Shown here piece after piece: positions 1 through 13,169 of a stretch of 13,169 nt of DNA. Every line of letters starts with the position of its first letter. The first letter of the stretch is position 1. A model generated the notes under the pieces. It had not been told where the DNA came from and searched no databases. It saw only the letters and a program-made list of their open reading frames with translations. Source of the stretch: a virus. Lineage: Duplodnaviria; Heunggongvirae; Uroviricota; Caudoviricetes. The DNA is taken from the IMG/VR virus record IMGVR_UViG_2721755711_000005, positions 1 to 13,169 of that record. One strand, written 5' to 3'. Position numbers and translations under genes: made by a program.

Positions 1-1242
1 ATGGCACGAAAAACCACCCCACTAACCATTACGGAGATCAAAAACGCACGGCCAGGGGAAAAGGAATACACCCTGCAGGATGGCGGAGGATTATTTCTTC
101 TGGTGAAGCCCTCCGGATCAAAAATCTGGCGTTTTACGTACTACCGTCCGGCAGATAAAAAACGGACTATTATCAGCCTTGGATCGCTGAATGATGTTTC
201 CCTGTCTGATGCCAGAGAGCGACGGAATGAATACAGGTCACTCATAGCAAAGGGAACTGACCCACAGGACCACGAACGCCGGAAACGTGAAGCAGAGAGC
301 CGGAAAAAGGGCAACACGTTCGAAAAAGTTGCCTCGGACTGGTACGAGATGAAAAAAGGCCAGAATCTGGCTTACAACACGATTAAGGATATCTGGCGAT
401 CCATGGAAAAATACGTATTCCCGTACATCGGAAACACGCCAATAGATACCCTCACCGCTCGCCGCTTTGTTGAGATACTCACCCCCATTAAGGCGCGTGG
501 CAACCTGGAAACCCTGAAACGCGTTTTACAGCGCATCAATGAGGTGATGGATTTTGCTGCCAACAGTGGTCTGATTGACATCAACACCGCCGCGAACGTC
601 CGCAAGGCATTCCCCTCACCCACCAAAAAGCACATGCCAACCATCCGACCGGAACAGCTACCACAGCTAATGCACGATTTATCGGTCGCCAGCATAGAAC
701 GGCAAACCAGATTGCTGATTGAGTGGCAGCTGCTGACCGTTGCACGCCCCGCCGAAGCAGCCGCCGCACGCTGGGAAGAAATAAACCTCGATGCCGAAAC
801 CTGGACGATTCCAGCCGGACGCATGAAGATGCGCCGTGACCATGTGATCCCCCTTTGCGGTCAGGCTATGGCTGTACTGGAAACCATGAAGCCAATCAGC
901 GCACACAGGGAACACGTTTTTCCCAGCCTTAAAAATCCGATGCTACCAATGAGCAGCCAGACCGCTAACGCTGCATTACGCCGGATGGGATACGCTGGTG
1001 TGCTGGTGTCTCACGGATTACGCGCCATATTCAGTACAGCAGCGAACGAGGAAGGATTCGAGCCGGACGTAATCGAGGCCGCACTCGCACACGTGGACAC
1101 GAACGAGGTAAGGCGAGCATATAACCGAAGTAACTACCTGGAAAAGCGCGTGGTGCTTATGCGCTGGTGGGGTGAATTTGTGGAAGCCGCAGCAACCGGA
1201 GTGACCATAGCCAGTGGTAAAAGGGGTATCCGTGCAGTGTAA
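1..1242 (+). CDS. int: Tyrosine-type site-specific integrase, P4/CP4-57 family, with N-terminal arm-binding domain
   Basis: 413-aa ORF. N-terminus (LTITEIKNARPGEKEYTLQDGGGLFLLVKPSGSKIWRFTYY) matches the DUF4102-type arm-binding domain of P4-like integrases. C-terminus carries catalytic-region motifs (HVIPLCGQA, SHGLRAIFST, RAYNRSNYLEKR with the candidate Tyr nucleophile). Window starts exactly at the ATG. Confidence 0.93.
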   Translation: MARKTTPLTITEIKNARPGEKEYTLQDGGGLFLLVKPSGSKIWRFTYYRPADKKRTIISLGSLNDVSLSDARERRNEYRSLIAKGTDPQDHERRKREAESRKKGNTFEKVASDWYEMKKGQNLAYNTIKDIWRSMEKYVFPYIGNTPIDTLTARRFVEILTPIKARGNLETLKRVLQRINEVMDFAANSGLIDINTAANVRKAFPSPTKKHMPTIRPEQLPQLMHDLSVASIERQTRLLIEWQLLTVARPAEAAAARWEEINLDAETWTIPAGRMKMRRDHVIPLCGQAMAVLETMKPISAHREHVFPSLKNPMLPMSSQTANAALRRMGYAGVLVSHGLRAIFSTAANEEGFEPDVIEAALAHVDTNEVRRAYNRSNYLEKRVVLMRWWGEFVEAAATGVTIASGKRGIRAV

Positions 1243-1755: not shown

Positions 1756-1962
1756 ATGGAAGTAATCAGAAAAATTCTTACCCGTCAGGAAGTAAAAAAT
1801 ATTCTGCGCATCAAGGCAGACAGTTCGCTACAGGACATGATCAACGCCGGAAAATTCCCGAAAGGCTTCAAAATCGGTCTGCGTCGTGTTGGCTGGTATG
1901 AAGATGAGGTGCTGGCCTGGCTGAAAGAACGCGAGGAAGAAGCGCGCGGAACGGCTGCGTAA
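1756..1962 (+). CDS. alpA: AlpA-family (Phage_AlpA) transcriptional regulator / excisionase-like HTH protein
   Basis: 68 aa. ILTRQEVKNILRI...FPKGFKIGLRRVGWYEDEVLAWLKER matches the AlpA signature (helix-turn-helix followed by VGW-E-E---WL--R). GAGGT RBS 8 nt upstream. Position just after int is typical. Confidence 0.85.
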   Translation: MEVIRKILTRQEVKNILRIKADSSLQDMINAGKFPKGFKIGLRRVGWYEDEVLAWLKEREEEARGTAA

Positions 1963-2238
1963 TGGTGTGAGGCGTAACACAATGAACATAACAAAAAGCG
2001 CCCCATTGCCGGAGCGCCCTTGCGAACAATTAGCCTGCCGCACCAAAAATAAATATGTGCAGGGGAATTATATCAACCGTGTGGCGAAGCGCCACAATTG
2101 CCGGATAACGGGCAAAACAAAGGCGACCGCAAAGGGTCGCCAGTGGATATTACGGCAAATCAAACTTGAACGCATCGCCAACAATGCCACATTTGCGGCT
2201 GGTGAGCAATGTGATCAGCGTGCTGGTTTGCTGGTGGG

Positions 2239-2436
2239 CTATTCCTGCTCTTTAGCATCGCCATGCTGCGATGTTTTCCAGGTATGCGATCCCATTTTTG
2301 TGCGCCTGTACTCTTTAAGGAACTTCTCAAGGACAAACGCACATGGCGCGAATCTTTCCTGTTCATGTTCGCTTACCGCGTTTTTGCGTTGTTTTTTCCT
2401 GGATGAAGATAATTTCTTTAATGATTTGTCAGTCAT
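2239..2436 (-). CDS. Hypothetical small basic protein (65 aa), paralogous 3' end to neighbouring small gene
   Basis: Lys/Arg-rich ORF ending ...DAKEQE. Its last codons and stop share DNA identity with the 3' end of gene 2494-2673 (TCCTGCTCTTT core). Confidence 0.4.
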   Translation of the reverse strand: MTDKSLKKLSSSRKKQRKNAVSEHEQERFAPCAFVLEKFLKEYRRTKMGSHTWKTSQHGDAKEQE

Positions 2437-2493
2437 CGTAGATACCTGTAACCCTGTGCGCCACAGTTCACCGCACCACGGCGCTGGTGATGG

Positions 2494-2673
2494 TTACTCC
2501 TGCTCTTTGGCCTTGCGCCGCTGGCGGTACTCAACTTCTCGCTTTAATGCTGCTGTTACAAACTGCCCTGTACTTTCACCAGGCATTTTTACCGCCTCAA
2601 CATTGTTCATAACTTCATGCGGAACCCTTGCCGCAACTGTTTGTGATTTTGCGTTTACTGCTTTTGTCGCCAT
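2494..2673 (-). CDS. Small putative DNA-binding protein (59 aa from ATG 2673; possibly ribbon-helix-helix-like), candidate repressor
   Basis: ORF track starts at GTG 2682, but the in-frame ATG at 2673 has a GAGGGG RBS 8-9 nt upstream. Sequence MATKAVNAKSQTVAARVPHEVMNNVEAV...QFVTAALKREVEYRQRRKAKEQE has a beta-helix-helix-like pattern. Divergent from the operator at 2724-2775. Confidence 0.5.
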   Translation of the reverse strand: MATKAVNAKSQTVAARVPHEVMNNVEAVKMPGESTGQFVTAALKREVEYRQRRKAKEQE

Positions 2674-2723
2674 GTTGTGCACCCCTCACAAAAAACAAAT
2701 GCAGTATGCAGGAAAAAAAATAA

Positions 2724-2775
2724 GTGTTCAACACTTGACGTGTTTAACACCTAGATTTAAATTGGTGTTCAACAC
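2724..2775. promoter_or_regulatory. Operator: three 11-bp palindromes GTGTT(C/T)AACAC in a divergent promoter region
   Basis: GTGTTCAACAC at 2724-2734, GTGTTTAACAC at 2740-2750, GTGTTCAACAC at 2765-2775. TTGACG at 2735-2740 (-35-like) lies between sites 1 and 2; TAAATT at 2758-2763 is a possible -10 after a 17-bp spacer. Confidence 0.6.
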
Positions 2776-2872
2776 CTTATTAATGCAAGGTGCAGAAACG
2801 ACGAAACCCGGCAGTGCGCGAACACTAACCGGGCTTCTAACCACCAACGATAGCAAGATTATCGAGGTAGCT

Positions 2873-3235
2873 ATGAGAAATCATAACCAAACTAAACCCG
2901 AATTTATATACACCTTTACGGCGCTACACCGAGATCGCATGGCTGACGGCGCAACTACGGTACATGTAGCCGCTGACACGCTGGTTGATGCCAGCAGGAT
3001 GGTTAAAGAGATGGGCTACGTTGCGGCGTTCTGGAAAGGGCGCGAAGAAAACACGCTGTTTATTCAGAAATGCGAAAACAATTTTATCTGGCGTTTTATC
3101 GCCCTGAGCACGGCGCAACCGCGCATGATTACCATTGAGGCCACCAGCGAACAGGAAGCACGCCAGCAATCCCCGGCTGGCTGCGTGATGGTATTCGCCG
3201 CCCGTATTCGTCAGGGGGTGCACCATGTGCAATAA
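2873..3235 (+). CDS. Hypothetical protein (120 aa), first gene of plus-strand replication operon
   Basis: In-frame ATG at 2873 within the long ORF 1967-3235, with GAGGT 4 nt upstream. The upstream part of that ORF overlaps the two minus-strand genes and the operator, so only this 3' part is called. Confidence 0.45.
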   Translation: MRNHNQTKPEFIYTFTALHRDRMADGATTVHVAADTLVDASRMVKEMGYVAAFWKGREENTLFIQKCENNFIWRFIALSTAQPRMITIEATSEQEARQQSPAGCVMVFAARIRQGVHHVQ

Positions 3236-3455
3236 AAACACGCCGGACGCAGCAGGCGAAGCATTGAAAGTACTGATACATGCGCTTGTGGATATAAATT
3301 GCATGGTAGAGATCATGGAGAAGAAATCACAGTCGGAGTACGACAAAAGAAAATTTAAAACAATAAAAATAATTACCAAAAACTCACTGACAAAAGCTAC
3401 AGACATCCTCAATGAGGACACTAAAAGAATCAGGGAGAAACTGTGTGATGCATAA
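3225..3455 (+). CDS. Hypothetical small protein (76 aa), largely AT-rich
   Basis: ATG overlaps the stop of the upstream gene; AGGGGGTG RBS. Lys-rich product; the gene runs into a strongly AT-rich patch. Confidence 0.4.
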   Translation: MCNKNTPDAAGEALKVLIHALVDINCMVEIMEKKSQSEYDKRKFKTIKIITKNSLTKATDILNEDTKRIREKLCDA

Positions 3456-3675
3456 AATACCTTTTGATGTTCTTATTCATTCTGAAAACGCATTAATCCG
3501 CGCAAAGGAAATGGAGGCATTATTACTTAAGTTAATGGAAGTGCCGGAAAATGGCGATGAATCATATCCCATGATGTTTTCTGCCGTGCACACATTATTA
3601 ACGCCAGTAATTAACGAATTAAATACGGTGATGGCAATTCACGAGAATAATAAAGCGCATCACACCGGAGAATAA
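3448..3675 (+). CDS. Hypothetical small protein (75 aa from ATG 3448), AT-rich
   Basis: ORF track starts at 3412, but ATG 3448 has an AGGGAGAA RBS about 8 nt upstream and overlaps the stop of the preceding ORF by 8 nt (translational coupling). No family recognised. Confidence 0.45.
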   Translation: MHKIPFDVLIHSENALIRAKEMEALLLKLMEVPENGDESYPMMFSAVHTLLTPVINELNTVMAIHENNKAHHTGE

Positions 3676-3680
3676 AAACC

Positions 3681-3980
3681 ATGAAACAGAAAATTTCTGA
3701 CTTTACTGCCAGCGGCCTCCCTCGGTCTGAAATCCGCCCCGGCGATATTTTCCGGGATAACTACGGCGGCACGGTAACGATTAAACACGTGGCGGGACGG
3801 TGCGTTACTTACCGCCGTGATGGGTACGGCTATGACTGCGTGATGCCTGCTTATCAGTTCCGGCGTGATTTTTCCCTGGTACAGGCAGCGCAACGCAGTA
3901 AGCCCACCAGCAGGGAAAAAGCACGGGAAAATATTAAGAAAATAAAAAGCATGCTCAGCGCATCCAGAGGTAAAAAATGA
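3681..3980 (+). CDS. Hypothetical protein (99 aa)
   Basis: GGAG RBS upstream. Stop overlaps the start of the helicase gene (3977) by 4 nt. Confidence 0.5.
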   Translation: MKQKISDFTASGLPRSEIRPGDIFRDNYGGTVTIKHVAGRCVTYRRDGYGYDCVMPAYQFRRDFSLVQAAQRSKPTSREKARENIKKIKSMLSASRGKK

Positions 3981-5383
3981 AACTGGCACCGAACGTAAAA
4001 CTGTTACCGAAAGATAAACACACTGAGGCGGTTATTTTTGCGGGTGATAATGCTCACTCCTTTGCAGAACATTACATGATTGCACAGGCCAAAAAAGCAG
4101 GCGATCCCATCCCTCCGGTTTACCTGGGCCGTTATCAGTTAAGCGAACTGGACAACTTACAGATTGTTGATGAAGGACGATACAGAGCAAAGGTCATACG
4201 CGCCGGAAACCTGGACGATATGCAGATGCTGACCATTGCCACAAAACTGGCGATCGCCGGAGTCCAGGAGGCGCGGCTACTTTCTGAAAATTTCGAACTG
4301 CTGGAGAACTGGAGCGACCAACTACCACGACTACGGGAAACATGGGAGAGAGGGGAAAGCCTGGTCATGAATGGCAGAAAGCGAAAAATCACGCTTCCCA
4401 TCTCATGGGGTTCTGAGGGATTCGACGCGCAGCAAAGCTACGTAATTAAGGGGCTTATTCCGGCTGAATCATTATGCAGCACCTACGGCGCGAGTGGTTC
4501 CTATAAATCGTTCCTCGCCATTTCCTGGTCGTGCCATGTTGCCACAGGTATGGCATGGGGAGGCCGCAGGGTAAGTAAGGGCGCGGTTATCTATATCGCT
4601 GGTGAAGGCAGCATGGGCGTAAAACGCCGCGTAAAGGCGTGGGAGATAACCCACGACAAGGTGGTTACAGATTTGTGCATCATTAACGCGCCGGTATTCC
4701 CTGCATCGCCTGACTATGTGGAGCAGGTTATCAGGACTGCCGGACTTGTTAAGAGCAGAACGGGCGAAAATGTGCGGCTGATTGTGATCGACACGCTGGC
4801 CCGTTGCTTTGGTGGGAATGATGAAAATGATTCCCGTGATATGGGCGCATTTATCCAGGGGTGTGACGCGATAAAGCAGGCCACAGGGGCCACGGTGCTG
4901 GTGGTTCACCATTCCGGCAAGGATGAAACAAAGGGGGCGCGTGGTTCCAGCGCATTCCGTGCCGCGCTTGATGCAGAGTACCGAATCAGCCGGGAAAATT
5001 CAGACGTTACAGCACTGGTGGCGGCGTGTACGAAGATGAAGGACGCAGAGGAGCCAAAAGAAAGCGCATACGACCTTAAAAGCGTGGAGGTGTTCACCGA
5101 TACAGATGGCGAAGAGATTGTGTCTATGGTGGTGATTGACGTTCCCCGCGCCCCTGCTGAACTGGAACGCATCGAGGAGGCCGGGAACAAGACGGAGAAT
5201 CACGCCGCATTATGGCAGTGCATCAGAACGCGGACGGCACACGGGGAATCATGCACTATTGCCCTGCTGCGCGACGATATGAAAAAGCTGGGGTATGAGA
5301 TGAAGCACTTCCGGCGCTGGCTGTACAAGCTGGAAAAAGACGGCGTGATCACTATCGACGGCAATGACGTGCATCCACTGTAA
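3977..5383 (+). CDS. Replication protein with RecA-fold ATPase domain (AAA_25 / RepA-like helicase)
   Basis: 468 aa. Walker A YGASGSYKS, Walker B RLIVIDTLARCF, and a VLVVHHSGKDETKGARGSSA sensor region typical of RepA/DnaB-like AAA_25 ATPases. Immediately followed by an iteron array. Confidence 0.8.
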   Translation: MKLAPNVKLLPKDKHTEAVIFAGDNAHSFAEHYMIAQAKKAGDPIPPVYLGRYQLSELDNLQIVDEGRYRAKVIRAGNLDDMQMLTIATKLAIAGVQEARLLSENFELLENWSDQLPRLRETWERGESLVMNGRKRKITLPISWGSEGFDAQQSYVIKGLIPAESLCSTYGASGSYKSFLAISWSCHVATGMAWGGRRVSKGAVIYIAGEGSMGVKRRVKAWEITHDKVVTDLCIINAPVFPASPDYVEQVIRTAGLVKSRTGENVRLIVIDTLARCFGGNDENDSRDMGAFIQGCDAIKQATGATVLVVHHSGKDETKGARGSSAFRAALDAEYRISRENSDVTALVAACTKMKDAEEPKESAYDLKSVEVFTDTDGEEIVSMVVIDVPRAPAELERIEEAGNKTENHAALWQCIRTRTAHGESCTIALLRDDMKKLGYEMKHFRRWLYKLEKDGVITIDGNDVHPL

Positions 5384-5585
5384 AAGTGGGGGATAAAAGT
5401 GGGGATAGCGGGGAATTTAACAAAATTGAAACGCTATTCCCCACTTTCTGGCCTGTATACATCCAAAAAAGTGGGGAGTAAAAAATACAATGAAAAACAA
5501 AGAATTAGACTTACCCAAAAAACGAGGTGGGAAGCAAGTGGGAAATTTTAAAAGTGGGGAACAAAAGTGGGGGTAGTGGGGAATG
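5384..5585. repeat. Iteron array, putative satellite replication origin
   Basis: About 8 direct copies of AAAGTGGGGA-like units (5384-5395, 5395-5407, 5465-5478, 5524-5534, 5535-5545, 5549-5560, 5563-5573, 5574-5585) plus one inverted copy CCCCACTTT at 5439-5447, with AT-rich spacers, directly downstream of the helicase gene. Confidence 0.8.
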
Positions 5586-6356
5586 AATAAAGAAAATATG
5601 ACCTGTCAGGGGATGAGCTACAAAGAACGCGAAGCACTCAAGGCCTTTGCGGGGCAGTGTGAGAAGCACGGAGATATACAGAGCCTAACCAGAACGCTGG
5701 TCATGATTGCGCACTGGATGCGACAGAGCAAGGCGGTGAGTTTTACGGAATACGCCAGCCAGTGGACAGAGGCACAGCGTGAACGGAGCGACGGCAATCA
5801 CTCAACACCCGAAATGGCGAAGCAATGGCCTTTCAGTGGTAAACGGTGCATCAATCCGGGCGGATCTGATTATTACCCGTGCGGAACAGAAAAAGAGCGA
5901 CAGAATGATGAGGTGGAAATTAAACACGCAGTAACGGTAATTCTTGCCGCTTACCCATTTTTTAACCGCGATGGACTTGAACTGTACAGCCGTGATAAGG
6001 CATGGGTGCACCCACTTGATTATGCGCCCTTCATGGCGGAGGCGATGAGCTGTTTACGCTGGATAAGGGAGAACAACCTTACCGACTGTAAGATTGCATC
6101 ATTCCCTGGAAAAAATCCGACATCCTACGGCCTGAAACATTGTGTTGAGCGTGTGAATCAGAGAAGAGCTAAGGGCGACGGGCAACCAACAGAGCCGACA
6201 TACATCACAAACGGCGCATTAATCGCCGCAATGGTCGCATCGGGTTATCGGGTGAAGCGAACGGGAAGAATGAACTGCCTGTTTAATATCTCACACAAAC
6301 AGCTTAAGCGCGCACTGATGACAGGACCAGTAAAAACCGGAGAACAGACAGCATGA
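5583..6356 (+). CDS. Hypothetical protein (257 aa); start codon uncertain
   Basis: Long ORF whose stop overlaps the SSB start. Weak RBS at the first ATG; alternative in-frame starts at Met6 and Met11. No family recognised. Confidence 0.55.
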   Translation: MNKENMTCQGMSYKEREALKAFAGQCEKHGDIQSLTRTLVMIAHWMRQSKAVSFTEYASQWTEAQRERSDGNHSTPEMAKQWPFSGKRCINPGGSDYYPCGTEKERQNDEVEIKHAVTVILAAYPFFNRDGLELYSRDKAWVHPLDYAPFMAEAMSCLRWIRENNLTDCKIASFPGKNPTSYGLKHCVERVNQRRAKGDGQPTEPTYITNGALIAAMVASGYRVKRTGRMNCLFNISHKQLKRALMTGPVKTGEQTA

Positions 6357-6775
6357 CAGCACAGATAGCGGCTTACGGGCGGCTGGTGGCTGACCCGCAG
6401 TTAAAGACCACCAGCAAAGGGACACAAATGGCGATGGCGAGTATGGCGGTTCCCCTGCCGTGCAGCCAGGCAGATGACGGAACGGCGACGATGTGGTTAT
6501 CCGTCCTGGCGTTTGGCAGACAGGCCGACGCACTGGCCAGACACCACAAAGGCGAACTGGTGAGCGTGGCGGGTAACATGCAGGTAAGCCAGTGGACAGG
6601 CCAGAACGGCGAAACGCGGCAGGGCTGGCAGGTTATCGCAGACAGCGTAATCAGTGCGCGAACGGCGCGACCGGGCGGCAAAAAAGGTCAACAGGGCCAG
6701 GCTACTGACGCGCTGAACAGGGCAAAACAACAGGCGGGTAATGATGATCCGTACGGGGACAACATACCGTTTTAA
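6353..6775 (+). CDS. ssb: Single-stranded DNA-binding protein (short SSB)
   Basis: 140 aa. N-terminal OB-fold-like region (AAYGRLVADPQLKTT...), Gly/Gln-rich linker and an acidic C-terminal tail DDPYGDNIPF resembling the canonical SSB tip DDDIPF. Confidence 0.8.
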   Translation: MTAQIAAYGRLVADPQLKTTSKGTQMAMASMAVPLPCSQADDGTATMWLSVLAFGRQADALARHHKGELVSVAGNMQVSQWTGQNGETRQGWQVIADSVISARTARPGGKKGQQGQATDALNRAKQQAGNDDPYGDNIPF

Positions 6776-6811: not shown

Positions 6812-7336
6812 ATGACAAAGCTGACCATTAACCGAAAACCGAAAGGCATTTACGGCACGCTGCAGAAAACGACGCAGGCGATACAGCAGCAGGATAAAAC
6901 CACATCGGCGCATAAAGTGATACCCGGCAATCAGAACGCACAGCAGAAGCCCACAGGGGCGACACCGTGGCGGCATATGACCAAACGCCAGCGCAAAAAC
7001 CGCAGACGCGTTAATCGCCTCACTGAGATGTGGCCTGACTTATTCAGCCGGGAAGCGCCAAAACCGCTGAAGGTGGGGATATTCGACGACCTTATGCAGG
7101 ATATCGCCGTCAGGGGGCTGGCATTCGGGCCGGGGGCATTACGTGCGACGCTGGCATCTTATACGCAGTCTCCGCGCTATTACCGCGCCTTAATGGCTGG
7201 TGGGGTACGCTACGACCTGAAAGGCCAGCCATATGGGGAGGTTACACCACAGGAACAGCAGGAGGCAGAAACGCGGCTGATGGCACTGAATGAGAAGCGC
7301 AAACGCCGGGCAGCAAAGGAGAAGACGGGCACGTGA
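6812..7336 (+). CDS. ProQ/FinO-domain RNA-binding protein
   Basis: 174 aa. PLKVGIFDDLMQDIAVRG...LRATLASYTQSPRYYRALMAGGVRYDLKGQPYGEV aligns with the ProQ N-terminal FinO-like domain (PLKIGIFQDL...[35 protein letters not shown]). Basic C-terminal tail. Confidence 0.8.
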   Translation: MTKLTINRKPKGIYGTLQKTTQAIQQQDKTTSAHKVIPGNQNAQQKPTGATPWRHMTKRQRKNRRRVNRLTEMWPDLFSREAPKPLKVGIFDDLMQDIAVRGLAFGPGALRATLASYTQSPRYYRALMAGGVRYDLKGQPYGEVTPQEQQEAETRLMALNEKRKRRAAKEKTGT

Positions 7337-7608
7337 TTCACGACAGCAAAGCGGAAGAACTGGAGGCTAAAGGGCTGTACCGAAGAGCGGCGGCGCGGTG
7401 GGCTGAGGTTATGCAACTGGTGAACACCGATAAGGAGCGCGAACAGGCGGCAAAGCGTCGCGCGGAATGTATCCGTAAGGCAGCACGCTCACCCGTTATG
7501 GCGGATAACTTCGGGGCGCTGAAAGAGGCTGTAAACCGCACTCATGCGGTGATGGGGATGGAAGACGCGGGTAAATCCGTCTGGCGGAACTACCCGAAGC
7601 AGCCCTGA
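7333..7608 (+). CDS. PerC/Pch-family transcriptional activator-like protein, GTG start
   Basis: 91 aa. KAEELEAKGLYRRAAARWAEVM...EREQAAKRRAECIRKA...AVNRTHAVMG matches my recollection of the PerC/Pch signature (LE-GL-RRAA-W--VM...RR--C...NRT). AAGGAG 11 nt upstream; overlaps the stop of the ProQ-like gene. Confidence 0.65.
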   Translation: MIHDSKAEELEAKGLYRRAAARWAEVMQLVNTDKEREQAAKRRAECIRKAARSPVMADNFGALKEAVNRTHAVMGMEDAGKSVWRNYPKQP

Positions 7609-7705: not shown

Positions 7706-7728
7706 GCCGGAACACTCCGGCTTTTTTT
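7706..7728 (+). terminator. Rho-independent terminator ending the replication operon
   Basis: GCCGGA-ACAC-TCCGGC hairpin followed by a run of 7 T. Confidence 0.75.
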
Positions 7729-7805
7729 ACGGGTCCTCCTGATGGGGTACCCTTACCGCGGGGCGACGGACGCGCGGAAAACGGCTAATTTTTGAATTTT
7801 TATCG
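7722..7805 (+). repeat. cos-like element A (cosQ-like plus degenerate cosN-like), paired in inverted orientation with 12515-12595
   Basis: TTTACGGGTCCTCC...CGCGGGGCGACGGACGCGCGGAAAACGGCTAATTTTTGAATTTTT resembles the bona fide cos at 8548-8640. Its reverse complement recurs at about 90% identity at 12515-12595. Confidence 0.6.
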
Positions 7806-8074
7806 GTCATCACCACCAGCGCAATTTATTGATAATGAAGGTTAAAAAAATTCCTGGTGTCGAAAACGCCTGTTTTTTGTTCACCACTGAATCATGCCGC
7901 ATCACGATAACCCACAAGGCTGGTGGTGATGCGTTATGCTCCCTACGTTGCCATCCTCCTGACCTCATGGCATTATCCGGCGTGAACGAGCGGTTATTCT
8001 CCGTACTCTTAATCGTTGTTCATGGTTATTTGCTTTGTGGTAGCTTACATTTCCTGATGGTTATTATCCTTCCA

Positions 8075-8098
8075 CCCCGTAATCACGGGGTTTTTTTT
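8075..8098 (+). terminator. Rho-independent terminator in the non-coding region upstream of cos
   Basis: CCCCG-TAATCA-CGGGG hairpin followed by a run of 8 T. Lies inside the compositionally implausible ORF 7829-8167. Confidence 0.55.
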
Positions 8099-8547
8099 GT
8101 CTGCGATTTGCCGTTCTCCGTTGCGCTGGTGGTAACGTCACGACATGTCACCATCACGTCACGCTGATGGCGAAAGTCAGGGTTAACCAGTACCGGAACG
8201 GGTAGCCCGATGTACTGTTACCGTTCTGCTGGCTGGTGGAGTAATTGATAACGGTTATCATCAACGGGAGGGGTGGATCAAATCCCTGTAGTCCTGGCTG
8301 TCAGGGACCGCCGCCCAACCCTTCTTCACATCGCCGCAGGTTCGAAAACTTTTTTTTGGGAAGGTGCGCACAGACTTGATAGATAAAACCTATCAGACAA
8401 AACCACGCCAACCCCGCGCCATTGCTGGCATCGTTAAAAAAACTCACTCCACCAGCAGGCTAAAAAACCGTGATTTTTCCGGTTTTATGGGCTGAAAAGG
8501 GGCTCCCTAAAAAACACCTCTTACACTGCCGGACAGGAGCGGTGGCT

Positions 8548-8770
8548 TTTCACGGGTCCTTTCCGGGGATCTGAAACACCACGGGGCGGCAGACGCGCAG
8601 ATTTTCACTATTTATGAAAATTTTTCAGGGAAAAAGCATGTCGGTACTTCTTGCATGTAACATTATGTTTTTATTGCAACTAACTATCATAAACATACGA
8701 CACCATAACGCCGGAAAATCCCGTTTTTCAGGCGTTTCATGTCGGAGGTGGTTTTTGATGAGGATTTGAT
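8548..8770 (+). other. cos: Lambda-type cos site: cosQ-like (8548-8583), cosN (about 8584-8595), cosB (8596-8770)
   Basis: TTTCACGGGTCCTTTCCGGGGATCTGAAACACCACG|GGGCGGCAGACG|CGCAGATTTTCACTATTTATGAAAATTTTTC closely parallels the phage lambda cos junction as I recall it (...TTTACGGGTCCTTTCCGGTGATCCGACAGGTTACG|GGGCGGCGACCT|CGCGGGTTTTCGCTATTTATGAAAATTTTCC), and sits immediately upstream of a Nu1-like gene exactly as in lambda. Confidence 0.85.
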
Positions 8771-8772
8771 AA

Positions 8773-9357
8773 ATGAATGTTAACAAAAAGAGACTGGCGG
8801 AGATTTTCGGTGTTGATCCGCGCACAATTGAGCGCTGGCAGATGCAAGGGCTTCCCCATGTATCTGGTGGCGGAAAAGGTGTGGAGGTGACTTTCGACTC
8901 TACACAGGTGATCGAATGGTATGTACAGAGGGAGAAGGAGATCGAAAACGAAAAACTCCGCAGGGAGCTTGATGATTTACGTGCTGCTGGTGAATCAGAT
9001 TTACAGCCAGGCACAACAGAGTACGAACGCTACCGTCTCACCAAAGCACAGGCGGACGGGCAGGAACTGAAGAACGCCAGAGAGACAGGGGAAGTTATAG
9101 ATACTGAGTTCGTACTCTGTGCGCTTCGTGGACTGGCGAGTCAGATTTCTTCGATCATGGATAGTTTGCCGCTCACAATGCAAAGGCAGTTCCCCGGGAT
9201 GACTCCGGCAATGCTCGATGGCCTGAGGAAGGAAACAGCACGAGCCTGTAATGCGTGCGCTAAAACTGCCGATAACCTACCCCGCATTCTGGAAGACTAT
9301 CTGATGGAAACAACCGGAAACGTGCCGGAGAAGTTACGGCAACAGAAAGGTGAGTGA
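8773..9357 (+). CDS. Nu1-like small terminase subunit homologue (satellite packaging-redirection protein, Rpp-like)
   Basis: 194 aa, collinear with lambda Nu1 along its whole length: [28 protein letters not shown]...[12 protein letters not shown]...[11 protein letters not shown]...[28 protein letters not shown] versus Nu1 MEVNKKQLADIFGASIRTIQNWQEQGMP...GGGKGNEVLYDS...[11 protein letters not shown]...[28 protein letters not shown]. No large terminase gene follows. Confidence 0.9.
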
Positions 9358-9383: not shown

Positions 9384-9442
9384 AAGAAAGGATCTGATAA
9401 CGTTATTTTTGGCCCAAAATGACCACTGTCAGATCCTTTCTT
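9384..9442 (+). terminator. Perfect 14-bp inverted repeat hairpin after terS (possible terminator or protein-binding site)
   Basis: AAGAAAGGATCTGA (9384-9397) and TCAGATCCTTTCTT (9429-9442) with a 31-nt loop, followed by TTTTTCTG. The loop is unusually large for an intrinsic terminator. Confidence 0.4.
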
Positions 9443-9494: not shown

Positions 9495-9586
9495 TGACTT
9501 TTCCCGAAAAATTTTCATAAACAGTTAAGAATTGCGCGTATCCGTACCCCCGGCGCTCAAGATTCTGGAAAGGACCCGTGACACCT
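9495..9586 (-). repeat. cos-like element D, inverted copy of the cos region, downstream of terS
   Basis: Reverse complement reads GTGTCACGGGTCCTTTCCAGAATCTTGAGCGCCGGGGGTACGGATACGCGCAATTCTTAACTGTTTATGAAAATTTTTCGGGAAAAG, which parallels cos 8548-8632 in its cosQ core, its GC-rich centre and its TTTATGAAAATTTTTC block (roughly 75% by eye). Confidence 0.6.
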
Positions 9587-9590
9587 GACC

Positions 9591-9614
9591 AACAAAAAAG
9601 CCCCCGAAGGGGGC
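9591..9614 (-). terminator. Rho-independent terminator of the minus-strand toxin-immunity operon
   Basis: GCCCCC-GAA-GGGGGC hairpin. On the minus strand it is followed by TTTTTTGTT, immediately 3' of the immunity gene stop (9619). Confidence 0.75.
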
Positions 9615-9618
9615 TAAA

Positions 9619-9867
9619 TTACGCATCTTTAAAACTGGGTTTGCCATTAGCTAAACGCCAGGTTTTAACTTCTTGTACGATGGCTTCCGGGCTATCGTCT
9701 TTTCCGTTCTCTGGATAAAAAATTAGATCAGAGCCTGATGGATGTTCAGAGAGGCGCCTGAATTCTCTGACTAACTGCTCGCTTTCTTTTTCTGTTCCTT
9801 CTGCATTACATATTTTTCGAACAAGATCTAAGAATTCATTTTCAGTATAGTCGTTTATTGTTTTCAC
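9619..9867 (-). CDS. Colicin/pyocin DNase immunity protein (Im7/Im9 family)
   Basis: 82 aa, GTG start. [82 protein letters not shown] aligns along its full length with Im9 (...[79 protein letters not shown]). One nt separates it from the toxin stop. Confidence 0.92.
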
Positions 9868-9868
9868 G

Positions 9869-11560
9869 TTATTTTCCCCTGTGAATTTCTATATGCCGCT
9901 TTGGTGTTGTGATACCCATATTATCAACGTTATAAACTTCGCCCCCCTCACTTATAGGTTTAATATGGTGTATCTCGTAACGTTCCCTCCCACCAACTCG
10001 ATCCACTTCCCTTGTGAATGGTGAACGTCCTTTGCGAATGTTCGTGAGGTTGTGTGCTCTGAACTGTCTTGACAAATCAGCATCGTTTGCCACTTCTGCC
10101 CAAAATGCCTCCCTGAATCGATCAAAATTCGCAAATGTTCGCCCACGCATCCGCTCCGCAATCTGGCTGGGTACTGGTGCACCATTTCCCTTATCGGCAT
10201 CCACCAGCCACGCCCCGCTAATTTTTTGTCCTTTCCCTGTTACCTGCCCGGCGTTATTCCTGATGTAAATATAAATCGGCGGTATATCCGGGAATGGCAG
10301 GATCAGAATGTAATCCGCAAAATCCTTTTCTTCCGGGGCCGGGCTGGTTGTGGCGTGTAATCCCGTGTCATCCGGTAACGGGTCCACCATCACCGGATTC
10401 GGCAGCACTGGCGGGTACTGATTTCCCGTGTGGTACGGTACATCAATCCCCGGATTATCCGGCGTCCAGATGAGTGTGATACGCGGGTCTTCCTCCGTGG
10501 TGAACGTGTACGCCTTTCGTCTGTCGTCCCACTCCATCCGGCGCACGCGCACCCTGTCCTGTCCCGGTGGCGTGTGCCAGCCATGCGGCACGGGGTTCCC
10601 CCGGCTGTTCGTCTCCCAAGTAAAGCGAACACGGGTAGGCACTTCCCTGACCTGTTCGGCCCTCATACGGTCGATAAAATCCTGCTCCCCGTCATTCAGC
10701 CGGCCGGGCATCATCCCTATCAGAAACGCCGCCAGTGGCAGCCCCGCAACCCCGGTCGCGGTTTCGCCCACGACGGCCCACGTTCCCCGGATGGCAAAAT
10801 TTCCCGCCACCGGACGCAGAACGCTCGCCCCGGCAATTGCCGCTCTGGCCCGTTGTGCGCGCTCCGCTTCCTCAACCGCACGCTGATAATCCATTTCCTC
10901 GTGATGGCCGTTCCACCATTTCCACAGTGCACTGCGTTTCTTCGGCTTCGGAATATCCTCCGGCGCAATCAGTTTTTTCTTTTTGACCGCCTGTGCACGC
11001 TGCGGGGCTTCCGTGTCTGTCACCGGGTCAGTCTGCGGAACGGCCTGATAAATCCCCATCGGTGCAAAGTTGGTATGCGGCTCCCGCTGGTCGCCCGCGT
11101 CGTTGCATCCCGCACCGCGCAGACAGGATTTTGCAAACACCCGGTTACGTTCCCGTTCTTCCTCCCGGCGTTTTTCTTCAGCTTCCCGTTCTGCCCTGCG
11201 TTGTGCTATCAGTTCCGCCTGTTTTTTCTGTGCAATTTCTGCCGGCGACGGCCCCGCCCCCATCCACTGACCGAGCGGGGCAATAATCCGGTTTGAACCT
11301 TCAGGGCAGCCACAGTGAACAACACAGCCATCAACGGCAATGGGAATATCTATCACCTTAAAACGGGCTTCTCCTTCTGCCACCATGCCGGGCTTTCCGC
11401 ACGCCGGGCAGGGAGTGGTTTTGTCTCCCTTACGAATAAGACCGTTACCACAGACGTTGTAGTTAGGGACAGGAAGGGAAGTAATCAGCCATGCGCCGGT
11501 GGTGGTTTTGTCACAGGAAAGCGCCATTCCCCTGCCGTGTATATCCGGTCTGTATGTCAT
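9869..11560 (-). CDS. Polymorphic toxin: Cys-rich N-terminal domain, charged linker, central domain of unknown function, C-terminal colicin E9-type HNH DNase
   Basis: 563 aa. The C-terminal ~130 aa ([49 protein letters not shown]...[55 protein letters not shown]) align with the colicin E9 DNase domain, including the HNH motif. N-terminus has multiple Cys ([16 protein letters not shown]). GGAG RBS 8 nt upstream; ATGA overlap with the upstream gene. Confidence 0.9.
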
Positions 11561-12045
11561 GGCTTACACTCCGGCACCAGAAAATCCGCTGGCATACTTT
11601 CGCCTTCACGACAACAAAGTAACGTTATTCGCTGCGGCGTACTGATAATCTCATCCCCGTTATCCAGTTGGCTGCCAACCAGAGCATACCCTTTTCCGTG
11701 ACAACTGAACGCACTGCCGGAACCGCTGATAATACGGGCCGTAGTGCCGTCCTGATACGTCACCTCATCCCCGACCATCGCCATTTCTGCCATCTCTCCG
11801 GTGCTGTCAGCGACTTCGCAGCCGGAACTGGCGGAAGACACCACCCCGCCATTACGGGTAAGGCTACCGGTAGTGGCATGTCGCCAGATAGCCACAATCG
11901 GATGTTGACGGCAAAATTCCTCCTGCTCCCTGATTATCGCCAGCGCATCATCGGACATATCAGCAAGCGCTTCCTCTGTGAAAGGGGATTTATCCAGTTC
12001 TGCCAGTACATCGGCGGTCAGTTCGTTGGTATATTGCTTCATCAT
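11557..12045 (-). CDS. Hypothetical protein (162 aa) co-transcribed with the toxin: acidic helical N-terminus, Gly/Ser-rich C-terminal half, Cys cluster; candidate PAAR-like partner, adaptor or chaperone
   Basis: First gene of the minus-strand operon, translationally coupled to the toxin by an ATGA overlap. C-terminal half AMVGDEVTYQDGTTARIISGSGSAFSCHGKGYALVGSQLDNGDEII is loosely reminiscent of PAAR-type repeats; ends with LLCCREGES...PECKP. Confidence 0.6.
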   Translation of the reverse strand: MMKQYTNELTADVLAELDKSPFTEEALADMSDDALAIIREQEEFCRQHPIVAIWRHATTGSLTRNGGVVSSASSGCEVADSTGEMAEMAMVGDEVTYQDGTTARIISGSGSAFSCHGKGYALVGSQLDNGDEIISTPQRITLLCCREGESMPADFLVPECKP

Positions 12046-12514
12046 GTTTCTGTTTTTCCTGTGGTTAACAATCGACCAGAATCATAATGAAAGGGAATGC
12101 AAAAAAATTGATGGATATCAAAATGAAAAATAAAATCATCCCGGTAAAACAGGATATCTACCCCACCAGCATCCCTGGATTTTCAGATAGTTGCTTTTAG
12201 CCTCTGAACAACATCTGCTGGTGGCTGATAATTACAATAATTCCTGCCCCCTGGCGTTTCTGAGCATGTTTACCGCGAATTTTGCGCAAAACACCTTAAC
12301 AATTCTTAAATTTTAAAAACACTTCAGTGATAAGCATCACCGCTCCCGCTCACATTTGACACAGGCAACTCCATCTGGCAGGTGAAAATCAAATTTATTT
12401 ATATATTTCAATTGATTGTAAACTGGTCTAATGACAGGGGAGAAAAAAGACTGTACAGGTGAAAACAGAAATAATTCTTAATTATCAATGAATTATCACA
12501 CATGCTGCCGCCGC

Positions 12515-12595
12515 CATGAAAATGCAAAAACTAGCCGTTTTCTGCGCATCCGTCGCCCCGCGGTAAGGGGCACCCCACCGGGAGGACCCACGACG
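12515..12595 (-). repeat. cos-like element C, inverted partner of element A (7722-7805)
   Basis: Reverse complement CGTGGGTCCTCCCGGTGGGGTGCCCCTTACCGCGGGGCGACGGATGCGCAGAAAACGGCTAGTTTTTGCATTTTC matches 7726-7805 at about 90% by eye. Confidence 0.6.
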
Positions 12596-12884
12596 ATCAG
12601 GGAGTTTTATCAACGTCGTGTGTTATGCCGGATTAACTGCGTACGTAATACGTGCACATCCCGGACAGGAGCAGCCAGAATCAGCGCCGCTGACGTTGTT
12701 TTGTGGTTATCCCCCTGTCATGAATCATCGCAATGGTTTTATGTGTTCTGCGTTGCGCTGGTGGGTTATTCCACCATTGGTGGGAAACATGGCACCACAT
12801 CCACCAGCTTAAACGCGCTTCACCTTCCCGGCATCAGTCGCCACAATTACGGCATTGCTTTCCATCACCACGGAGGCCATGACC

Positions 12885-13169
12885 ATGACCGAAGCCGAAA
12901 TGCTCAAAATGATTCGCCGTGCTGCCGGAATCAGCCAGGCAGCAGGCAAACAGGAGGCCACGCAACCGGACAGCGTGATAGCCGAAAATTACGCGCGTGT
13001 GGTGGCTGATGTGATGCGCCGTGACGGTATCGAGCTTAACGGCGTGGATATGCGCGATATACGAACCAGAGTTCTCGAGTTGCTGGCATGTCGTCGCCGT
13101 TCTCAGCAACGGAGGGAGAGCGCGAAAAATACTTACCAGTGGAAGAAGCCGGAGCGGTTACGGCGGTAG
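12885..13169 (+). CDS. Hypothetical protein, 3'-truncated by the window end
   Basis: The ORF runs to the window edge. GGAGG at 12872-12876 is 8 nt upstream of the ATG at 12885 (the ORF track starts at 12855 with no RBS). No family recognised. Confidence 0.4.
   Translation: MTEAEMLKMIRRAAGISQAAGKQEATQPDSVIAENYARVVADVMRRDGIELNGVDMRDIRTRVLELLACRRRSQQRRESAKNTYQWKKPERLRR

Follow-up and report, generated by a model that had tools for sequence, protein, structure and literature searches.

A predicted orphan T6SS effector–immunity cassette carried as accessory cargo by an Escherichia coli PICI-type satellite

Organization of the locus

The stretch of DNA that was analyzed, referred to in the following as the window, is 13,169 nt long and contains a PICI-type E. 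coli satellite of 13.2 kb, located at tRNA-Pro. The backbone consists of int, AlpA, a RepA-type helicase, SSB, ProQ, PerC and Nu1-TerS, providing the integrase, AlpA-type regulator, replication module and TerS/cos of a satellite, with no capsid, tail or lysis genes and with a size inside the range applied for PICIs (about 10–15 kb). The gene order and the site are the same as in E. coli PICIs at tRNA-Pro/yejM-yejO. Relative to E. coli CEA224S, an insertion of ~3.3 kb occupies an accessory slot (9579–12838) that lies between terS and the final gene of the island; in relatives, the same slot contains capsid genes, a fimbrial subunit or nothing. The features of the packaging module and the slot are:

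8550..9357, plus strand: packaging module, with cos at 8550–8633 and the Nu1-type small terminase gene at 8773–9357
9499..9581, minus strand: inverted copy of the cos-like sequence in the interval between terS and the cassette (inverted repeats I2/I6)
9590..9615, minus strand: strong intrinsic terminator of the operon, including its T-run (hairpin 9615..9599)
9867..9619, minus strand: gene for an 82-aa immunity protein of the Im2/Im9 family
11560..9869, minus strand: gene for the 563-aa toxin
12045..11557, minus strand: gene for the 162-aa partner (p162), with three N-terminal helices (residues 10–46) followed by a complete PAAR cone (residues ~49–145)
12046..12322, minus strand: AT-rich region 5′ of the operon, which moves along with the cassette
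12516..12569, minus strand: inverted copy of a second, 54-nt cos-like repeat, situated beyond the cassette (I1)

The small terminase matched Phage_Nu1 with an E-value of 7.9e-68, as well as phrog_57 (terminase small subunit). The cos is of the phage-21/lambda type, with a nick site near 8584 and a match that begins at base 1 of the phage 21 records. The integrase, replicon, Nu1-type TerS and cos suggest that a lambdoid helper phage could package the satellite. The initial annotation had placed the toxin operon in a cargo position beside the packaging module and between cos-like repeats, and both points were borne out by the comparison with CEA224S and by the two inverted copies. The copy at 9499–9581 is also present in related PICIs that do not carry the cassette, while that at 12516–12569 is 91% complementary to 7750–7803, within a copy (7724–7889) that matches unannotated regions of Stx-type lambdoid phages. 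A search of the long intergenic regions for non-coding RNAs gave no Rfam match at the gathering score.

The ORF positions agree with the gene order first proposed, in which the 563-aa toxin is followed 1 nt later by its immunity gene: the GTG start of the latter lies one base after the toxin TAA. The stop codon of the p162 gene and the start codon of the toxin gene share a 4-nt ATGA overlap, in keeping with the proposed co-translation of the two proteins. The terminator (AGCCCCC-TTC-GGGGGCT plus a T-run, with a 7-bp stem containing 6 GC pairs and a 3-nt loop) was found where it had been predicted, directly behind the immunity gene, 3 nt past the stop codon. The operon is oriented opposite to the satellite's own operon and has its own terminator behind it.

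Upstream of the operon, the GC content drops to 0.37 (12001–12500), and this region matches E. coli island copies at 94% as far as 12309. A simple scan of the minus strand upstream of 12045 showed no sigma-70 consensus; a sigma-70-like site near 9885–9857 was discounted as a promoter because it overlaps the immunity start codon. No LexA box or SOS promoter was matched near the operon, the region around 12046–12500 included. Neither side of the operon has a lipoprotein-like (lipobox) ORF, which confirms the earlier statement that a lysis gene is missing.

The toxin and its immunity protein

An identical protein from E. coli is present in NCBI under the names "S-type pyocin domain-containing protein" and "PAAR domain-containing protein". 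The order of its parts is PAAR, helical linker, conserved motif, Pyocin_S and HNH DNase:

11261..11560, minus strand: residues 1–100, PAAR spike-tip domain with a four-Cys site (C51, C54, C83, C85)
11066..11137, minus strand: residues 142–165, near-invariant motif of 24 aa, following a long helix (106–144)
10265..10660, minus strand: residues 301–432, Pyocin_S/inner-membrane translocation (IMT) domain, PF06958
9878..10249, minus strand: residues 438–561, colicin E2/E9-type HNH DNase, PF21431

Structure comparisons of the N-terminus, for which PAAR was one of the folds initially suggested, recovered a PAAR fold at residues 1–100. The predicted structure is a conical, three-fold beta fold that superposes on solved PAAR proteins. 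The toxin scored 22.6 bits (E 1.2e-4) against PF05488, whose curated gathering score is 27 bits, and a precomputed PF05488 match is present in most of its homologs. In a 38-sequence alignment of the toxin family, C51, C54 and C83 were conserved at ≥90% and C85 was invariant; the four residues probably constitute a Cys4 metal site. Residues 106–144 are predicted to form a single charged helix. The motif at 142–165 (FAKSCLRG...HTNF) has invariant columns in the same alignment and low confidence in the structure model.

The Pyocin_S domain was identified by Pfam (PF06958, E 1.1e-29), by PDB entry 3mfb (E 2.9e-25) and by a klebicin G match. The initial annotation had correctly reported the absence of a Gly-rich translocation domain, but had overlooked this standard domain; residues 301–432 are an ordinary pyocin/colicin inner-membrane translocation domain.

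The C-terminal domain matched the Pfam family Col-Pyo_DNase (PF21431) over residues 438–561 with an E-value of 1.8e-52, and its HNH motif (E-x-HH...N...H...H) is complete. The assignment to the colicin E9 type is right at the level of the family, with E2 marginally closer: the end-to-end alignment with colicin E2 gave 57% identity (E 1.2e-50), compared to 53% for colicin E9 (E 7.7e-46). Likewise, the immunity protein belongs to the Colicin_Pyocin immunity family PF01320 (E 1.3e-33), as the designation Im9-like implied, and is slightly nearer to Im2 (62% identity, E 1.1e-30) than to Im9 (E 2e-26).

The PAAR-fold partner

The p162 protein scored 29.2 bits against PF05488, above the gathering score, and its predicted fold, which is conical and three-fold, can likewise be superposed on solved PAAR proteins. 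Across the p162 family, there was no conserved Cys/His metal site. The partner lies directly upstream of the toxin in 28 of 35 species-representative loci, and p162 homologs are likewise found ahead of PAAR toxins whose C-termini are of other types. In Serratia marcescens, a partner and PAAR-DUF3289 pair adjoins genes for a Tlde1-domain protein and Hcp. A rough look at identities across loci gave no evident co-variation between the partner and the toxin PAAR domain.

A VgrG trimer accepts one PAAR protein; the presence of two PAAR-fold proteins in one operon is a point against a T6SS role. A tandem PAAR partner is described neither by the DUF2169/PIPY chaperone model (PMC11883445) nor in a review of accessory factors of the T6SS (PMC13584744), both of which we considered, and neither tandem PAAR genes nor fusions to pyocin come up in a survey of PAAR proteins (PMC8651086). 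There is a likeness, by description, to the Francisella IglG/DUF4280 PAAR-like proteins, which according to PMC13402684 have a cone in which four Cys are essential and an N-terminal extension that is functional. These features recall the toxin's Cys4 site and the helices that extend p162, which in the window are split between two proteins. The conserved PAAR-fold partner looks new and uncharacterized.

Distribution of the family

A total of 398 homologs were collected from Enterobacter, Pantoea, Serratia, Salmonella, Pectobacterium and other genera. They have the N-terminal 77% in common and differ in their toxin domains, which include DNase, PF09000 rRNase and PF15526. Enterobacter homologs share 62–67% identity with the window toxin over the full length. 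Most members of the family are chromosomal orphans, and phage, satellite and lysis genes are missing from their neighborhood.

The cassette is not bound to satellites in particular: none of the 35 species-representative loci outside Escherichia had satellite genes, and within Escherichia the cassette also occurs on small plasmids and on IS-ridden islands. The sister cassettes on plasmids are carried by Rop-type replicons of 5–6 kb with a layout resembling that of colicin plasmids. A second PICI backbone in IMG/VR bears the same cassette, and two copies are filed there as viral contigs. Carriers include GCA_009901325.1, GCA_052769745.1 and a 5.33-Mb genome in which APJ76745.1 is encoded.

Route of delivery

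The architecture itself is not novel: PAAR-Pyocin_S-toxin proteins are common in Enterobacterales and have already been named Ppp1-3, for "PAAR Pyocin-S domain-containing proteins", in Enterobacter bugandensis E104107, where they were put forward in silico as putative T6SS effectors (Microb Genom 2023, PMC10763514). As described in the available text of that report, Ppp1-3 are 521–579 aa long and, like the window toxin, have an N-terminal PAAR, an S-type pyocin domain at ~298–442 and a variable toxin C-terminus, and their genes are orphans outside the T6SS clusters. They are chromosomal rather than carried on a satellite, and the same text makes no mention of an upstream PAAR-fold partner; in the window, the delivery part is joined to an E2/E9-type DNase with an Im2-like immunity protein.

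The cargo is also familiar from other effectors. Pyocin_S, equivalent to the IMT domain, accompanies PAAR, Hcp or VgrG in nuclease effectors of the T6SS (PMC9040868), and VPA1263 of Vibrio parahaemolyticus is a MIX-Pyocin_S-HNH DNase T6SS effector (PMC9602870). VPA1263, VgrG-NucSe1 of Salmonella arizonae and Hcp-fused Pyocin_S-HNH proteins are experimentally supported T6SS antibacterial effectors. The VPA1263-type cargo (Pyocin_S, colicin-type DNase and Colicin_Pyocin immunity) is homologous to that of the window, whereas the delivery domain is MIX, VgrG or Hcp in the former and PAAR in the latter. From residue 141 on, the toxin aligns with Hcp-fused and Vibrio Pyocin_S effectors, the Hcp-fused match spanning residues 141–560. 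Over residues 238–560, the toxin matched NCBIfam NF047924 with an E-value of 5.5e-60; the 203 bits of this match fall well short of the equivalog cut-off of 900, and the toxin is therefore not VPA1263 itself.

Since PAAR-Pyocin_S-toxin proteins are widespread in Enterobacterales and have been described in silico as Ppp1-3, the locus is most likely an orphan T6SS cassette and not a colicin. We put a probability of roughly 0.78 on the reading that it is a predicted orphan T6SS effector–immunity cassette, carried as accessory cargo by an E. coli PICI-type satellite. A single ORF combines PAAR (1–100) with the DNase (438–561), and the immunity gene follows 1 nt downstream. Neither the window nor the 10 kb around it in the source assemblies contained T6SS genes, and a T6SS gene was nearby in 1 of 35 related loci, so that linkage to vgrG, hcp or tss was lacking; such orphans are frequent among T6SS effectors. 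A full T6SS cluster at aspV is present in both of the complete E. coli genomes that have a sister cassette (2/2), a co-occurrence that carries little weight because ~40% of complete E. coli have the same cluster. A literature search turned up no experiments on the secretion or toxicity of any PAAR-Pyocin_S protein, the published support being in silico. Of the non-colicin routes initially suggested, the PAAR/T6SS route is the one favored by the folds of the toxin N-terminus and p162, while helper-phage lysis, a phage spike tip and co-packaging found no positive evidence.

A classical colicin or pyocin operon was ruled out. The HNH DNase and its cognate Im are present, and Pyocin_S/IMT lies directly upstream of the DNase as it does in colicins E2/E9, S-type pyocins and klebicins, but there is no receptor or T domain, lysis gene or SOS (LexA) box. 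The toxin had no match to colicin T or R domains in PDB or Pfam, and a PAAR cone replaces the Gly-rich disordered T domain and the coiled-coil BtuB-binding domain of colicins.

A less conventional bacteriocin would be a diffusible colicin- or pyocin-like protein, set free into the medium by helper-phage lysis or by a T6SS and taken up through a receptor, with Pyocin_S completing the import. Nuclease colicins, pyocins and klebicins indeed have the same Pyocin_S, DNase and Im modules, small Rop-type plasmids similar to colicin plasmids carry sister cassettes, the satellite context would supply lysis on induction, and a contact-independent T6SS nuclease effector exists in Yersinia, according to the available text of the report (PMC7813860). 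We nevertheless consider this unlikely: residues 1–100 form a PAAR cone where a receptor-binding or disordered Tol/Ton-box region would be needed, the operon has neither lysis gene nor SOS box and runs against the satellite's own operon behind its own terminator, and the family consists mostly of chromosomal orphans away from phages, satellites and lysis genes.

It is very unlikely that the pair acts inside the producing cell, as an island-stabilizing addiction module or in abortive-infection defense. PICI and P4 accessory slots are defense-system hotspots, as far as the available accounts of them go, and post-segregational killing is conceivable in principle for a stable toxin whose antidote binds it tightly. 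However, two PAAR domains and an inner-membrane import domain would have no purpose within the cell, and where homologous Pyocin_S-HNH modules are fused to VgrG, Hcp or MIX, the proteins are antibacterial effectors delivered by a T6SS. A known anti-phage defense system was ruled out, as none of the three cassette proteins had a match in PADLOC.

That the PAAR-fold protein or proteins sit on the tail spike of a helper phage or satellite particle, with the DNase injected along with the DNA, for example against recipient or rival phage DNA, is scarcely credible: the cos and Nu1-type TerS of the satellite are of the phage 21/lambda type, and phages of this type are siphoviruses, which lack a beta-helical spike of the gp5/VgrG type; tblastn searches with the toxin and p162 against 50,697 phage genomes gave nothing, which also rejects a phage origin for either protein; the family is found mostly outside phage or satellite contexts; and a DNase injected into the cell to be colonized would be self-defeating unless immunity came first.

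Proposed mechanism and relation to other mobile effectors

As an orphan T6SS effector, the toxin would first be held inactive in the producer by the immunity protein, which would bind and block the DNase. Its PAAR domain would then cap the VgrG trimer of the host's chromosomal T6SS, with p162 perhaps assisting in loading or stabilization, and the contracting sheath would push the spike into a neighboring Gram-negative cell. There, by analogy with pyocin G and the nuclease colicins, the Pyocin_S domain would carry the DNase over the inner membrane, and the HNH DNase would degrade the chromosome of cells lacking the immunity protein. The satellite would contribute mobility only, leaving its recipient both armed and immune.

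More tentatively, p162 may represent an uncharacterized class of T6SS accessory factor, a stand-alone PAAR fold that lacks a metal site and bears a helical extension at its N-terminus; it would be co-translated with Cys4-PAAR-fused toxins of many different types (Pyocin_S-nuclease, DUF3289 and unknown domains) and needed for their loading or firing, and satellites and small ColE1-type plasmids would be the natural vehicles of such partner/toxin/immunity cassettes among Escherichia. We regard this larger proposal as possible but doubtful. If true, it would tie phage parasitism to contact-dependent bacterial warfare, and the PAAR-fold partner offers a concrete starting point for work on T6SS loading.

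Defense systems, virulence factors and resistance genes are known to be moved by satellites; interbacterial weapons would join this list of cargo, and a single transduction would alter the pattern of killing among the members of a gut community. The window matches EcCICFT073-type PICIs (int-alpA-replicase-TerS/cos) in gene order, tRNA-Pro site and cos/Nu1 type, and differs in that its cargo is a predicted interbacterial weapon instead of a defense system or virulence factor. T6SS effector–immunity modules on mobile elements include those of the Vibrio cholerae Aux3 prophage-like element and of GMT islands. PIX orphan effectors, too, lie near integrases, transposases and prophages (bioRxiv 10.1101/2023.07.16.549128); the PIX delivery domain was itself rejected as an identity for the N-terminus, being a different domain unrelated to PAAR. 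Like the window cassette as interpreted above, the Aux3, GMT and PIX modules are orphan effector–immunity pairs that depend on a T6SS encoded elsewhere in the chromosome; unlike their vehicles, that of the window is a satellite predicted to depend on a helper phage, with its own cos/TerS. We found no published report of a PICI or another satellite carrying a T6SS effector, and the carriage of the cassette by a satellite appears to be unreported. The class of toxin and its probable route have already been described, and current understanding is not overturned.

Exchange of toxin–immunity ends

The delivery part is 96–97% identical in DNA sequence on the satellite, the small plasmids and the islands, whereas the toxin–immunity ends differ. 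A recombination breakpoint at 10248 is common to the island and plasmid copies. As in other polymorphic toxins, the C-terminal toxin and its immunity protein are a pair exchangeable by recombination at the Pyocin_S/toxin border. The copies thus show the assembly of a polymorphic toxin, with one delivery part and varied toxin–immunity ends joined exactly at the Pyocin_S border.

The cassette encodes a candidate T6SS effector

The cassette most likely comprises an orphan PAAR-headed DNase effector of a type VI secretion system (T6SS), together with its immunity protein and a partner of PAAR fold, and owes its mobility to a PICI; we assign this reading a probability of about 0.78. Its genes lie between the terminase gene and the island's last gene:

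12045–11557, minus strand, 162-aa partner ORF
11560–9869, minus strand, 563-aa toxin ORF
9867–9619, minus strand, 82-aa immunity ORF
9615–9599, minus strand, GC-rich hairpin and T-run, beginning 3 nt past the immunity stop codon

The first two ORFs are joined by an ATGA overlap, and a 1-base gap separates the second and third. No ORF with a lipoprotein signal was found on either side of the operon, and no LexA-box-like sequence upstream of it. The initial annotation had described the ORFs, their spacing, the terminator and the absent lysis ORF correctly in all checkable details.

Pfam assigned toxin residues 438–561 to Col-Pyo_DNase (E 1.8e-52) and the 82-aa protein to the Colicin_Pyocin immunity family (E 1.3e-33). 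Against solved structures, the DNase aligned over its full length with colicin E2 (E 1e-50, 57% identity), colicin E9 (E 8e-46, 53% identity), E7, pyocins S2/AP41 and klebicin G, and every residue of the HNH motif was kept. The nearest relative of the immunity protein was Im2 (E 1e-30, 62% identity), followed by Im9. The toxin had been called a colicin E9-type DNase with Im9-like immunity; the family stands, but E2 and Im2 match marginally better. The central region, previously unrecognised, was identified by Pfam as Pyocin_S (residues 301–432, E 1.1e-29). Pyocin G depends on this domain to enter the cytoplasm, and the domain survey of the same study found it in T6SS nuclease effectors alongside PAAR, Hcp and VgrG (PMC9040868).

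Predicted PAAR cones in the toxin and its partner

The structure of toxin residues 1–300 was predicted from an alignment of 38 homologs. In the model, residues 1–100 folded with confidence into an all-beta domain (pLDDT about 90); a long helix (106–144) came next, and then low-confidence sequence. About 80 residues matched PAAR structures at about 2 Å, and the best six Foldseek matches were PAAR proteins without exception. The prediction thus bore out the PAAR-like fold proposed for the Cys-rich N-terminus, and the fold search suggested for the 162-aa protein also gave a PAAR cone, so that both proteins are modelled as PAAR cones. Because the PAAR_motif Pfam score of the toxin is sub-threshold (22.6 vs 27 bits), its assignment depends mainly on fold. 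The cysteines pointed out in the initial annotation include four that are conserved in the homolog alignment, C51 and C54 (CPxCG) and C83 and C85 (CxC), and these are compatible with a putative metal site where the cone has its apex.

Residues 142–165 (window 11066–11137), in the region poorly modelled by AlphaFold, form a 24-residue motif that is near-invariant among the 38 homologs, which are otherwise about 60% identical; it may serve as a binding site. Alignment to relatives without the PAAR head starts at about residue 105 or 141.

We counted 35 loci for toxins headed by this PAAR among species-representative genomes; in 28 of them a partner homolog lies upstream, ending a few to about 100 bases before the toxin start. 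Every partner homolog examined adjoins a PAAR-headed toxin, regardless of C-terminus: a Pyocin_S toxin with CdiI_5 immunity (Pectobacterium, Salmonella), a Pyocin_S-rRNase toxin (Leclercia), toxins of 385 aa (Klebsiella) and 458 aa (Raoultella) with unassigned C-termini, and PAAR-DUF3289 (Serratia marcescens), with one gene for a Tlde1 domain and one for Hcp about 1–3 kb away. These gene neighborhoods mark the partner gene as a conserved component of the module. It is missing or reduced to a remnant beside some toxins, and is therefore not absolutely needed for persistence of the toxin gene. A VgrG trimer accepts one PAAR, which makes a second protein of this fold puzzling; we infer that the partner may be a loading or stabilising accessory. 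No published description of it was found in the literature.

Toxin family and proposed mode of action

About 400 toxin relatives were detectable, almost all in Enterobacterales, with genera including Enterobacter, Pantoea, Pectobacterium, Serratia, Citrobacter, Salmonella, Cedecea and Tatumella. Many match only the first 77% of the toxin, beyond which their toxin domain is a different one, for example PF09000 rRNase or PF15526; this combination of common N-terminus and varied ends is a polymorphic-toxin signature. According to PMC10763514, the 'PAAR Pyocin-S domain-containing proteins' Ppp1–3 of Enterobacter bugandensis have the same architecture in silico, are encoded by orphan genes away from T6SS clusters, and were suggested to be new T6SS effectors. 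T6SS delivery and antibacterial activity have been reported for homologous Pyocin_S-HNH cargo on different heads, namely MIX (VPA1263), VgrG (VgrG-NucSe1) and Hcp. The toxin therefore adds to a known class, whose PAAR-Pyocin_S form has been described in silico. T6SS effector–immunity modules are well known on other mobile elements. The initial annotation had considered such cargo undescribed on satellites: the toxin class is known from Ppp1–3, but our literature searches gave no case of a PICI or other satellite carrying a T6SS effector. What appears new is the vehicle.

We observed the domains and folds, operon structure, family spread, partner linkage, cargo position and modular toxin–immunity exchange. 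In the proposed mechanism, the toxin PAAR would cap VgrG, the T6SS would fire the toxin, and the DNase would be imported by Pyocin_S-dependent inner-membrane translocation and degrade DNA; satellite transduction would spread the cassette. Neither the window nor the source contigs up to 10 kb away contained T6SS genes. A full aspV T6SS cluster (tssA–M, two hcp, vgrG, rhs) is present in both complete E. coli genomes that have the sister cassette; since this cluster type occurs in 2095–2301 of 5426 complete E. coli genomes, the 2/2 co-occurrence agrees with the model without being significant.

Release as a diffusible bacteriocin by helper lysis is improbable, with several points against it and no positive evidence. 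The same balance applies to an intracellular addiction or defence module, which we consider still less probable, and to a phage or satellite spike-tip toxin, the least probable of all.

Satellite backbone and cos-like repeats

The window is a 13.2-kb island with an integrase gene at its start:

1–1242, plus strand, tyrosine integrase
1756–1962, plus strand, AlpA-type regulator
plus strand, DUF4222 protein
3977–5383, plus strand, RepA/AAA_25 helicase
6353–6775, plus strand, SSB
6812–7336, plus strand, ProQ/FinO protein
7333–7608, plus strand, PerC
8773–9357, plus strand, Nu1-type small terminase (terS)
12855–13169, plus strand, small conserved final gene

E. coli islands at tRNA-Pro, in the yejM/yejO interval, have a gene order equal to this backbone. 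In the cassette-less island of E. coli CEA224S, only 266 bp lie between the small terminase gene and the last gene, and window 9579–12838 is an insertion relative to it. Between the helicase and SSB genes, a 257-aa protein (5583–6356) gave a weak PHROG match only, with none in Pfam, NCBIfam or PADLOC. Several small ORFs occupy both strands of 2000–3700 (Icd-like and YlcI/YnfO-like in relatives), and a 422-aa ORF at 1967–3235 is probably spurious.

Two types of repeat were found:

8550–8633, phage 21/lambda-type cos, just 5' of terS (match to phage 21 records)
9499–9581, its inverted copy, just 3' of terS
7750–7803, second 54-nt cos-like element, resembling unannotated regions of Stx-type lambdoid phages
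12516–12569, inverted copy of the 54-nt element

Base 1 of the phage 21 records is the match start, equivalent to window 8584, and the nick site of this cos lies near that position. Both inverted pairs are nested around terS and the cargo, with the phage 21/lambda-type pair inside, and the inverted copies flank the cassette, one on each side. The claimed bracketing by cos-like repeats is thus present and more structured than stated. In E. coli A19, the inter-repeat segments are rearranged, with window 7906–8651 inverted and downstream of terS, suggesting that inversions occur between repeats. The dual cos types might permit packaging by two helper families. Directly 3' of terS, a 29-nt near-perfect hairpin with arms 1 nt apart (9384–9442) may terminate the satellite's rightward operon, opposing the cassette terminator across the inverted cos copy.

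Carriers of the cassette and exchange of toxin ends

The identical toxin was confined to E. coli, in the same island. A second backbone variant, on two IMG/VR viral contigs (L021/L022), has a 98–100% identical cassette and a different replicase. Its cassette and packaging region resemble those of the window (96–100% protein identity), and its replication module has a 710-aa primase-helicase in place of the 468-aa RepA and 257-aa protein, which points to module shuffling among these satellites.

The delivery part, from partner through Pyocin_S, occurred in only 2 of 5426 complete E. coli genomes, both times in IS-ridden islands and with a different C-terminal toxin and DUF6392 immunity. One of these islands keeps PerC, the cos region and the terS 3' end, and is therefore a decayed satellite. 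In E. coli OkiPb01677, the decayed satellite with sister cassette sits inside a conflict-rich island (1–31 kb of the locus) that also houses the anti-phage protein Hhe, a reverse transcriptase, copies of IS66, orphan CdiA toxin tips with the VENN motif, and a complete cdiA.

The delivery part was also present on 5.3–6.1 kb Rop-type plasmids of E. marmotae, E. albertii and E. coli, at 96–97% DNA identity from the partner start codon to window 10248. This position is the Pyocin_S/DNase border, so toxin–immunity ends are exchanged at that point. NZ_CP056162.1, NZ_CP117578.1 and NZ_CP054566.1 are Rop/ColE1-type plasmids with hardly any genes beyond those for the partner, the PAAR-Pyocin_S toxin and DUF6392 immunity, a layout like that of colicin plasmids, yet without a lysis gene. 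Satellite genes were found around none of the 35 species-representative loci outside Escherichia (0/35); given the other carriers, the satellite is one vehicle among several.

Orphan immunity genes and toxin-domain fragments, among them an immunity gene of the Colicin_Pyocin family and a Cytotoxic fragment accompanied by DUF7683, lie 3' of cassettes now bearing another toxin in Leclercia adecarboxylata (L017/L018, 10456–10716) and Raoultella (L089, 7776–8047). These leftovers look like footprints of successive toxin–immunity replacement.
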